DNA of 28,980 nucleotides from a virus (lineage: Duplodnaviria > Heunggongvirae > Uroviricota > Caudoviricetes). How positions within the stretch are numbered: the first letter of the stretch is position 1; every line of letters starts with the position of its first letter. Made by a program: the position numbers and the translations under genes. Location: IMG/VR virus record IMGVR_UViG_2574180275_000003. One strand, written 5' to 3'. This document shows, piece after piece, positions 9,191 to 9,313 of the stretch. Below the pieces are notes generated by a model, which was not told the DNA's origin, ran no database searches, and saw only the letters and a program-made list of their open reading frames with translations.

Positions 9191-9313
9191 GCGGGTTATG
9201 CGGGTTATCCTGTGTATAAGTGCATTAACTGTATGAATAAAAAGGAAATCAATAACCCGCACGTAACCCGCAAAACGGCAGTTATAACCCGCAAAAGTGC
9301 GATTATAACCCGC
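9191..9313. repeat. iteron cluster 1, candidate origin of replication
   Basis: GCGGGTTAT at 9191-9199 and 9200-9208, an AT-rich spacer, then four inverted copies (A/G)TAACCCGC at 9252, 9263, 9284 and 9305 (spacings 11, 21, 21 bp); starts 24 bp after the primase stop. Confidence 0.65.

Follow-up and report, generated by a model that had tools for sequence, protein, structure and literature searches.

We analysed a stretch of 28,980 nucleotides of viral DNA (IMG/VR record IMGVR_UViG_2574180275_000003, Caudoviricetes), which at its full length is called the window here. It contains a satellite element that is inserted in the terminase gene terL of a prophage and that encodes a replication protein, Rep, with a DUF927 domain. 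We characterized two arrays of a 9-bp repeat (iteron), TGCGGGTTA, in this element: module 1 (M1), which is found directly past rep, and module 2 (M2), which is found near the right end. The element and its landmark genes are located as follows.

2175-17562, + strand: satellite element of 15,388 bp, by its gene content a capsid-forming phage-inducible chromosomal island (cf-PICI), inside the prophage terL
2346-3554: integrase gene int
7047-9167, + strand: rep, encoding a DUF927 protein of 706 aa
9378-9803: ssb, encoding a single-stranded DNA-binding protein (SSB), followed by perC, the capsid genes and, further on, terS
15378-17039: terL of the satellite itself

Layout and conservation of the two iteron modules

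M1 follows the rep stop codon (9165-9167) and is composed of the following parts.

9172-9181, + strand: linker motif CTGTGTGAGG, lying past the rep stop and ahead of the first iteron
9190-9207, + strand: outer set of two tandem TGCGGGTTA at 9-bp spacing (9190-9198 and 9199-9207)
9208-9252, no strand: AT-rich spacer of 45 bp, candidate unwinding region
9253-9314, - strand: inner set of four TGCGGGTTA at 9253, 9264, 9285 and 9306, in helical phasing

A preliminary description of this DNA had reported six 9-bp copies at this place, namely two tandem copies, an AT-rich spacer and four inverted copies at spacings of 11, 21 and 21 bp. We recovered the same arrangement, and all six copies (9190-9314) are exact TGCGGGTTA. 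The array start had been given as 24 bp past the DUF927 stop, which holds in the GCGGGTTAT register; the first TGCGGGTTA 9-mer, at 9190, begins 23 bases after the stop. The spacer is about 70% AT (GC content of 0.33-0.38 in 40-bp windows) and, based on nearest-neighbour energies, ranks 7th among the least stable 40-mers in the 15.4-kb element.

A second cluster of TGCGGGTTA, at 17120-17273, had been missed in the preliminary description. When reverse-complemented, it aligns with M1 module for module, such that the two arrays have a mirror layout. M2 is built as follows.

17120-17170, + strand: inner set of iterons at 17120, 17141 (GGCGGGTTA, 1 mismatch) and 17162, with 21-bp phasing
17171-17247, no strand: AT-rich spacer of 77 bp, holding a consensus site for integration host factor (IHF)
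17203-17215, - strand: the IHF-consensus site TATCAATGCGTTA in this spacer
17248-17273, - strand: outer set of tandem iterons at 17248 (1 mismatch), 17256 and 17265, at 8-9 bp spacing
17276-17299, + strand: conserved box GTTTTGTATATATATACGAAAAAT directly after the tandem iterons, candidate melting or priming site

The box is unique in the window. By nearest-neighbour energies, a 20-mer in the M2 spacer ranks 2nd and the (TA)5 box 3rd among the least stable ones in the whole element. Allowing up to one mismatch, TGCGGGTTA has 22 matches in the window compared to 6.0 ± 2.7 expected. Since none of 100 dinucleotide shuffles reached 22 matches, the repeats are not due to chance. Of the 12 exact matches in the window, 11 are within the two clusters. 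No Rfam match was found in the window, and DnaA boxes were not above chance (one relaxed box in M1; 27 of 100 shuffles did as well). This DnaA-box-like sequence, TTATACACA, is located at the start of the M1 spacer (9211-9219, - strand) and is kept in the closest relatives.

We surveyed the window and 34 related loci. Escherichia coli loci with a DUF927 rep were found by DUF927 or module-2 similarity (L001-L004, L026-L028, L030, L032, L033, L037 and L038; the rep of L033 was retrieved separately as L036), among them L002, a close relative of the EDL933-type cf-PICI. A species-wide scan of Enterobacterales provided 19 loci (L005-L022 and L024; L023 ends inside rep). Further loci have an unrelated rep (L031 and L034, reached through module-2 similarity) or have lost rep (L035). 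For 26 DUF927 relatives we scanned the region past the rep stop. An M1-type array was present 23-32 bp past the stop in 26 out of 26, across Enterobacterales. It is composed of 2-3 tandem copies at 9 bp, an AT-rich spacer (45-60 bp, 60-84% AT) and 3-4 inverted copies, for which the 11/21/21 phasing is kept in most relatives. Comparing the post-stop sequences of all iteron classes by eye, we found the linker motif in other classes as variants of the form CAYGTGNGAG.

The M2 of the relatives starts with one copy and two inverted copies at 21 bp, or with three copies at 21 bp. An AT-rich spacer of 45-90 bp follows and then 2-3 tandem copies. For both modules the modal iteron count is six (M1 in 21 of 26 loci, M2 in 15 of 24). 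When nine remote TGCGGGTTA-type M2 sequences were aligned, variable columns numbered 90 of 197 outside the iterons and 2 of 53 within them (Fisher p = 7e-10). In this alignment, conservation extended to the box and the IHF-consensus site in the spacer, and substitutions in the IHF site among the E. coli copies fall on degenerate positions of WATCAANNNNTTR only. Strict matches to the IHF consensus are present in 6 of 20 M2 spacers, with 0.2 expected, and in 1 of 20 M1 spacers.

Irrespective of the iteron class, the box is positioned 2-4 nt past the last tandem iteron (21 loci and nine aligned E. coli remote modules), and its form in the relatives is GTTTTGyWTATATATA(C/G). The following ~50-100 bp (TTGCATTCAGGRGGGGG...) are also common to right-end modules of different iteron classes. 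In the window (17300-17345) and in L003 (15255-15330) this part reads TTGCATTCAGG, a run of G5-G8 and CGAAAT..., shared between different iteron classes and integrases; the length of the G run differs between strains. In the origin of a PICI with a RepA-family Rep (L031, 5157-5640; iteron AAAGTGAGG), an inverted iteron is likewise followed by a TTTTGCGTATATATAAGG box. Origins served by more than one Rep family thus seem to have this box in common, which would suggest that a host factor is involved or that the box has a generic role in unwinding.

The Rep protein and its covariation with the iterons

DUF927 is the sole Pfam hit of Rep (residues 167-434, E = 2e-46). In phmmer comparisons with PDB entries the Rep core matched 8TCH, the 'initiation of replication protein with helicase activity' of the Staphylococcus aureus pathogenicity island (SaPI) SaPIbov1, with E = 6.5e-14, and 5DGK, the MCM-like helicase Cch of SCCmec, with E = 0.002. 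Foldseek returned a probability of 1.0 for both entries, the query being a mediocre AlphaFold model with a predicted local distance difference test (pLDDT) of 61; the full-length model was unusable at residues 344-474 and 582-706. Judged by this homology, Rep is a self-loading helicase-initiator of the SaPIbov1-Rep/Cch type. The preliminary description had called it a DUF927 primase. The family assignment was borne out; the primase was not, as the core is an MCM-like helicase and no primase domain was found among Pfam families. Toprim, D5_N and Pox_D5 gave no hit. PHROG 1139 ('DNA primase') aligned only from profile position 243. Rep relatives of 824-949 aa bear an additional N-terminal extension.

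Among the relatives the iterons fall into eight sequence classes: TAACCCGCA; TAACCCAC; TGAACCAAC; TGAACCACG; TGAACCG; TTATCCCA; TYGTCCCA; and TGAGGCAAC. Pairs of loci reveal which part of Rep changes together with the class. Between the window and L003, L004 and L005 the Rep core is 95-96% identical and the C-terminus 27-30%, and the iterons are different. Between the window and L006 and L021 the core is 71-74% and the C-terminus 68-72% identical, and the iterons are 1 nt apart. To quantify this behaviour we used the identity of individual segments as a discriminator of same-class versus different-class iteron pairs and determined the area under the curve (AUC).

Rep residues 601-640: AUC 0.98
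Rep residues 641-706: AUC 0.98 (0.99 in the 25-locus set)
Rep N-terminus: AUC 0.72
Rep core: AUC 0.67
DUF4222: AUC 0.78
SSB: AUC 0.79

The iteron class follows the last ~105 Rep residues and none of the other tested segments or proteins. This part of the protein is encoded as follows.

8847-9164, + strand: Rep C-terminal ~105 aa (residues 601-706), putative winged-helix-turn-helix-like domain for iteron specificity

A match of the C-terminus to Pfam HTH_56, the helix-turn-helix (HTH) domain of Cch, was obtained with E = 6e-4, below the threshold (20.2 versus 26.2 bits). Such a sub-threshold match also occurs in 10 of 15 homologous C-termini. A search of the PDB with the C-terminal alignment profile returned nothing meaningful. 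Because the iteron class covaries with the C-terminus, and given the HTH_56 hits, we infer that the C-terminal domain is the iteron reader, for which the comparison provides strong indirect evidence.

The other candidates were rejected. The preliminary description had suggested the N-terminal domain of Rep as the binder of the 9-mer. This did not hold up, as the window and L002 share their iteron at an N-terminal identity of 41%. DUF4222, SSB and PerC do not track the iteron class. An AlpA-like HTH protein was ruled out, since L028 and L031 have the identical accession despite their different iteron content. As a separate observation, the first ~130 aa of Rep (window 7047-7440) are ~40-50% identical to the N-terminus of the unrelated D5-type Rep of EcCICFT073 (L025, 5742-6130). 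This alpha/beta domain belongs to no Pfam family and is shuffled independently of the helicase and the iteron-specificity domain.

Element boundaries and the position of M2 among relatives

Annotation of a near-identical locus lists, in this order, integrase, two HTH regulators, BRO-N, Icd-like, DUF4222, DUF927, SSB, PerC and major capsid, continued by prohead protease, portal, connector, HNH, TerS and TerL. With its own capsid genes and TerS/TerL and without tail genes, this gene set is that of a cf-PICI: the element has an integrase, HTH regulators, a rep-ori region and the capsid-to-TerL genes, lacks tail genes, and is co-oriented within a late gene of the prophage. A 7-bp core, TTACCAA, is present at both element ends (2168-2174 and 17556-17562). 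Joining the two terL halves at this core yielded an uninterrupted open reading frame (ORF) of 585 aa, of which a junction-spanning stretch of 369 aa is 99.7% identical to an intact phage TerL. Because the rejoined halves restore the ORF, the element is an exact insertion in terL of an HK97-like prophage. Helper-embedded PICIs have been introduced as a concept before (PMC10111431), and by its position and its co-orientation with the prophage terL the element is one of them.

The decamer TGTGTATTGC occurs as two direct repeats on each side of the att core (window 2304-2325 and 17459-17480). These repeats, which are unrelated to the TGCGGGTTA iteron, are probably arm-type binding sites of the integrase. 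The window is E. coli DNA, its positions 7000-10400 matching several chromosomes of this species at 99.9-100% identity, and a search of a phage DNA database gave no DNA match for the rep-ori region. At the right end of the O157:H7 cf-PICI (L002, 21300-21720) there are several ~40-bp repeats (GGCGCGGTAACTNNNTGATA...GCAAAATTGCG), which are unrelated to the iterons.

In the window, M2 is located past the stop of the element's own terL (17039) and ahead of the right arm, at a distance of ~280 bp to the right end. This is 7.95 kb past the rep stop and 7.8 kb downstream of M1. The position of M2 divides the 34 relatives as follows.

M2 directly adjacent to M1 (16 of 34): L002, L004, L006, L007, L009-L011, L014-L016, L018, L020, L021, L024, L026, L028
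M2 170 bp further (1 of 34): L008
M2 2.2-10.4 kb away (15 of 34), rep intact: L001, L003, L005, L017, L019, L022, L027, L030-L034, L037, L038
M2 2.2-10.4 kb away, rep deleted (counted among the 15): L035

L012 and L013 have M1, but no M2 was detected in the 4.8 and 10 kb downstream. The window belongs to the remote type; in its lineage the cargo from ssb to terL separates M1 from M2. A remote M2 is always at the right end of the element, in constant orientation relative to M1, and ~270-290 bp from the right attachment site where the end was located (window, L003 and L005). The iteron of M2 equals that of M1 in all adjacent loci. The remote loci number 16, composed of the window, 14 relatives whose rep is intact, and L035; in 13 of them, covering three classes, the iterons of M1 and M2 are the same and the cognate Rep and M1 are present in cis. 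The integration sites with which remote M2 is associated number at least seven: prophage terL, clpS, yejM/tRNA-Pro, thiM, dinD, hpt and tRNA-Ile. Among 5,426 complete E. coli genomes, M2-like DNA was present in 238 and the Rep C-terminus together with M1 in 252.

Several PICIs carry M2 without a matching Rep. L031 has a perfect TGCGGGTTA module at its right end (10001-10315) together with a RepA-family helicase and its own AAAGTGAGG origin. L034 likewise has a perfect TGCGGGTTA module (10001-10228), with a D5-type Rep and its own TGTCTACC origin. In L035, which lost rep, a perfect TGCGGGTTA M2 is found at the right end (10001-10231). Since these orphan modules hardly differ from the cognate M2 of L030, recent recombination between PICIs would be the simplest account of them. 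They could be used in trans by a co-resident Rep of class A.

Other irregular arrangements were seen as well. L030 contains, adjoining M1 (3990-4040), a decayed M2 tandem iteron with a remnant of the box (GTAACCCACACGGTTCTGTAGATATACAAAAATT), its intact M2 being 6.2 kb downstream; the remnant may be a fossil of the adjacent arrangement. In L015 (Yersinia pekkanenii) three complete double-module origins occur within ~6 kb: one directly behind the rep stop and two upstream of it, at ~5.7 kb and 1.2 kb. The rep match of this locus is stretched, and the copies may represent tandem elements or a duplication. In two PICIs with the same Rep and iteron (L033, 1652-8999; L037, 3876-10745) three large uncharacterised ORFs lie between M1 and M2. 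They encode ~0.6-0.9 kaa each, one with an SLT domain, and may be defence or accessory cargo.

Origin function and comparison with known systems

We assign a probability of roughly 0.8 to the reading that M1 and M2 form a two-part replication origin of the 15.4-kb cf-PICI, with M1 as the rep-proximal part, which is bound by the DUF927 Rep. M1 is very probably the binding site where the satellite's own helicase starts copying, as judged from its layout and from the homology of Rep. The preliminary description had proposed the rep-proximal array as a satellite origin served by its cognate initiator. The homology of Rep, the layout conserved in 26 of 26 relatives and the covariation of C-terminus and iteron support this suggestion. 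As a candidate origin, the array would be one origin module and not the whole, such that the clone of 9170-9380 proposed there would omit M2.

For Rep binding, DNA melting, helicase loading and any cooperation of M1 and M2 we infer the following sequence of events. After induction, hexameric Rep would bind the 9-bp iterons via its C-terminal winged-HTH-like domains, following the model for SaPI Reps. The opposed iteron sets would bracket the AT-rich spacer, with an IHF-type bend assisting in M2. The spacer or the adjoining (TA)5 tract would then melt and the helicase would load itself there. Twelve iterons in two mirror modules would fit two Rep hexamers, one per six-iteron module. M1 and M2 may cooperate by looping or fire independently, or M2 may be an accessory or control element.

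Several observations weigh against this reading. M2 was not found in L012 and L013 and may thus be dispensable, and the orphan M2 copies of L031 and L034 cannot work with the Rep encoded in cis. The HTH_56 hit of the Rep C-terminus is under the Pfam cut-off, and the AlphaFold model of the C-terminus alone (15 sequences), with a pLDDT of 42, was unusable for establishing the fold. Finally, the validated origin of a Gram-negative PICI, EcCICFT073, belongs to another helicase family (D5_N/DUF5906/Pox_D5).

It is possible, though we consider it unlikely, that M1 alone is the whole origin, as the preliminary description assumed, and that M2 is an array for copy control, titration or handcuffing, or a target of cross-talk between satellites. 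M2 would then restrict replication or redirect it, as incA does in P1 and incC in F, or serve as a decoy or landing pad for a co-resident class-A Rep. M1 by itself indeed shows the full SaPI-type layout, two relatives carry M1 only, and the presence of M2 on PICIs with an unrelated Rep and complete origins of their own fits an action in trans better than an essential partner in cis. However, these orphan copies, being near-identical to that of L030, may be functionless recent recombinants. The anatomy of M2 is origin-like, with an AT-rich spacer, opposed sets, an IHF-like site and an easily melted box, and M1 and M2 are contiguous in 17 of 34 loci with constant orientation. The fast amplification after induction would moreover leave a satellite little obvious need for copy restraint.

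We consider it similarly doubtful that the origin is naturally split, with one hexamer loading autonomously at each six-iteron module even at kilobases from the other, and that the right-end module is a portable cassette which recombines onto PICIs with unrelated replicons. On the 15.4-kb circle the modules are nearly opposite to each other (7.9 and 7.4 kb apart). If this were the case, PICIs with unrelated replicons could be amplified by a co-resident class-A Rep or could titrate it, amounting to parasitism or competition between satellites at the level of replication.

Transcription operators are a far less probable explanation of the repeats, either for autoregulation of Rep, for control of ssb and downstream genes, or as sites of another island protein. 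Initiators often autoregulate, M1 is situated between rep and ssb, and in relatives of the adjacent type the M2 box is 12-25 nt upstream of the start codon of the small gene that precedes ssb. However, no sigma-70-like promoter or terminator was called at M1 or M2, and in the window M2 is followed by the att arm and no gene. DUF4222, SSB, PerC and the AlpA-like protein fail as readers of the iteron class as described above, and the homologous SaPI arrays are proven origins (PMC9371898).

We regard it as next to negligible that the arrays, M2 above all, are recombination or packaging sites (integrase arm-type sites, excisionase sites of attP, or cos/pac), since the distance of ~270-290 bp to the right end and the IHF-like site, as found in att arms, are outweighed by the different arm repeats (TGTGTATTGC) on both arms, by the association of the same M2 with at least seven integration sites and integrase types, and by the adjacent-type M2 that adjoins rep far from att and terS/terL, M1 itself being located mid-element. 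M2 was on these grounds ruled out as integrase arm sites; as a cos or packaging site it is unlikely, given that the EDL933-type element has M2 next to rep.

The rep-proximal array is ordinary for a PICI and very probably an origin of an already known kind. In the literature searched we did not find the duplicated six-iteron architecture, the class-independent box, the natural displacement of M2 by up to 10 kb, or M2 on elements with unrelated replicons. The pairing of eight iteron classes with eight variants of the Rep C-terminus represents a specificity code, which is useful to predict cross-replication or incompatibility of co-resident satellites. The natural separations of M1 and M2 of 0, 0.3, 2, 5, 6, 8 and 10 kb provide a direct handle on hexamer number, loading site and orientation in self-loading Rep helicases. 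As cf-PICIs are being developed as delivery vehicles, minimal-replicon or deletion designs that keep the rep-proximal array only could fail.

Among known systems the closest correspondence is to the SaPI/PICI Rep-ori family. SaPI Reps are hexameric self-loading helicases whose C-terminal winged-helix domain recognises iterons, and the SaPI origin, directly downstream of rep, has opposed iterons on each side of an AT-rich region (PMC9371898). The window has a homologous Rep, an origin directly past rep and at least two opposed iterons on each flank of the AT-rich region. M1 is, on this sequence and layout evidence, a member of the family. SaPIbov1 in particular resembles the window in the sequence and fold homology of Rep and in the opposed iteron sets 3' of rep. 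Its iterons have 5-6 bp compared to 9 bp in the window. Unlike SaPIbov1, the window has a conserved (TA)5 box and two complete six-iteron modules that mirror each other; in its family, the modules are separable by 2-10 kb, the host is Gram-negative and no separate or fused primase domain was detected. SCCmec Cch has an MCM-like core homologous to that of Rep, and the two probably have the C-terminal HTH_56 domain in common; the type of element differs.

Gram-negative PICI origins have the same layout, and that of EcCICFT073 was validated by plasmid maintenance (Fillol-Salom et al. 2018, PMC6092414). This element is of the same type as the window's, with DUF4222, rep, ori, ssb and perC in the same order, iteron sets around AT-rich DNA right past rep, and homology in the first ~130 Rep aa. 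Its Rep is, however, a D5_N/DUF5906/Pox_D5 helicase with the iteron TGTCTACC, different from the DUF927/MCM-like Rep of the window. The EcCICFT073 paper reports no remote module and mentions P4 alpha and ori/crr (PMC6092414).

The plasmid origins P1 oriR/incA and F ori2/incC have in common with the window a second array of initiator sites outside the minimal origin, an IHF-like site and helical phasing of the iterons. Their initiators RepA and RepE are winged-helix dimers that recruit the host DnaB, whereas the Rep of the window would be a self-loading helicase. Their auxiliary arrays are plain direct repeats and, unlike M2, have neither spacer nor box. An iteron-plasmid origin of the RepA/RepE/Pi type was rejected, as the initiator is a helicase and no significant DnaA box is present.

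Regarding the way of working, the satellite P4 is more similar. Its ori and crr, studied by Ziegelin, Lanka and Calendar, reportedly lie kilobases apart and carry the same short iteron, both being recognised by the C-terminal domain of alpha, a multifunctional helicase-initiator. P4 alpha is of the TOPRIM-primase/SF3 helicase type, two direct 120-bp repeats make up crr, and looping between ori and crr has been proposed. The window likewise has two separated cis regions with one iteron, and remote pairs of this kind occur in three iteron classes. In contrast to the direct repeats of crr, M2 has opposed sets around a spacer. The natural M1-only loci (L012 and L013) and the orphan M2 copies (L031 and L034) hint that the requirement for both modules in cis is not absolute. 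Because the initiator family differs, being DUF927/MCM-like and not an alpha-type primase/SF3 helicase, the origin of the window resembles P4 ori/crr in its working and is no member of that system. Among the relatives of the window the distance between M1 and M2 varies naturally from 0 to 10 kb, unlike in P4, and this variation is relevant to the long-standing question of what a distant cis element like P4 crr does.

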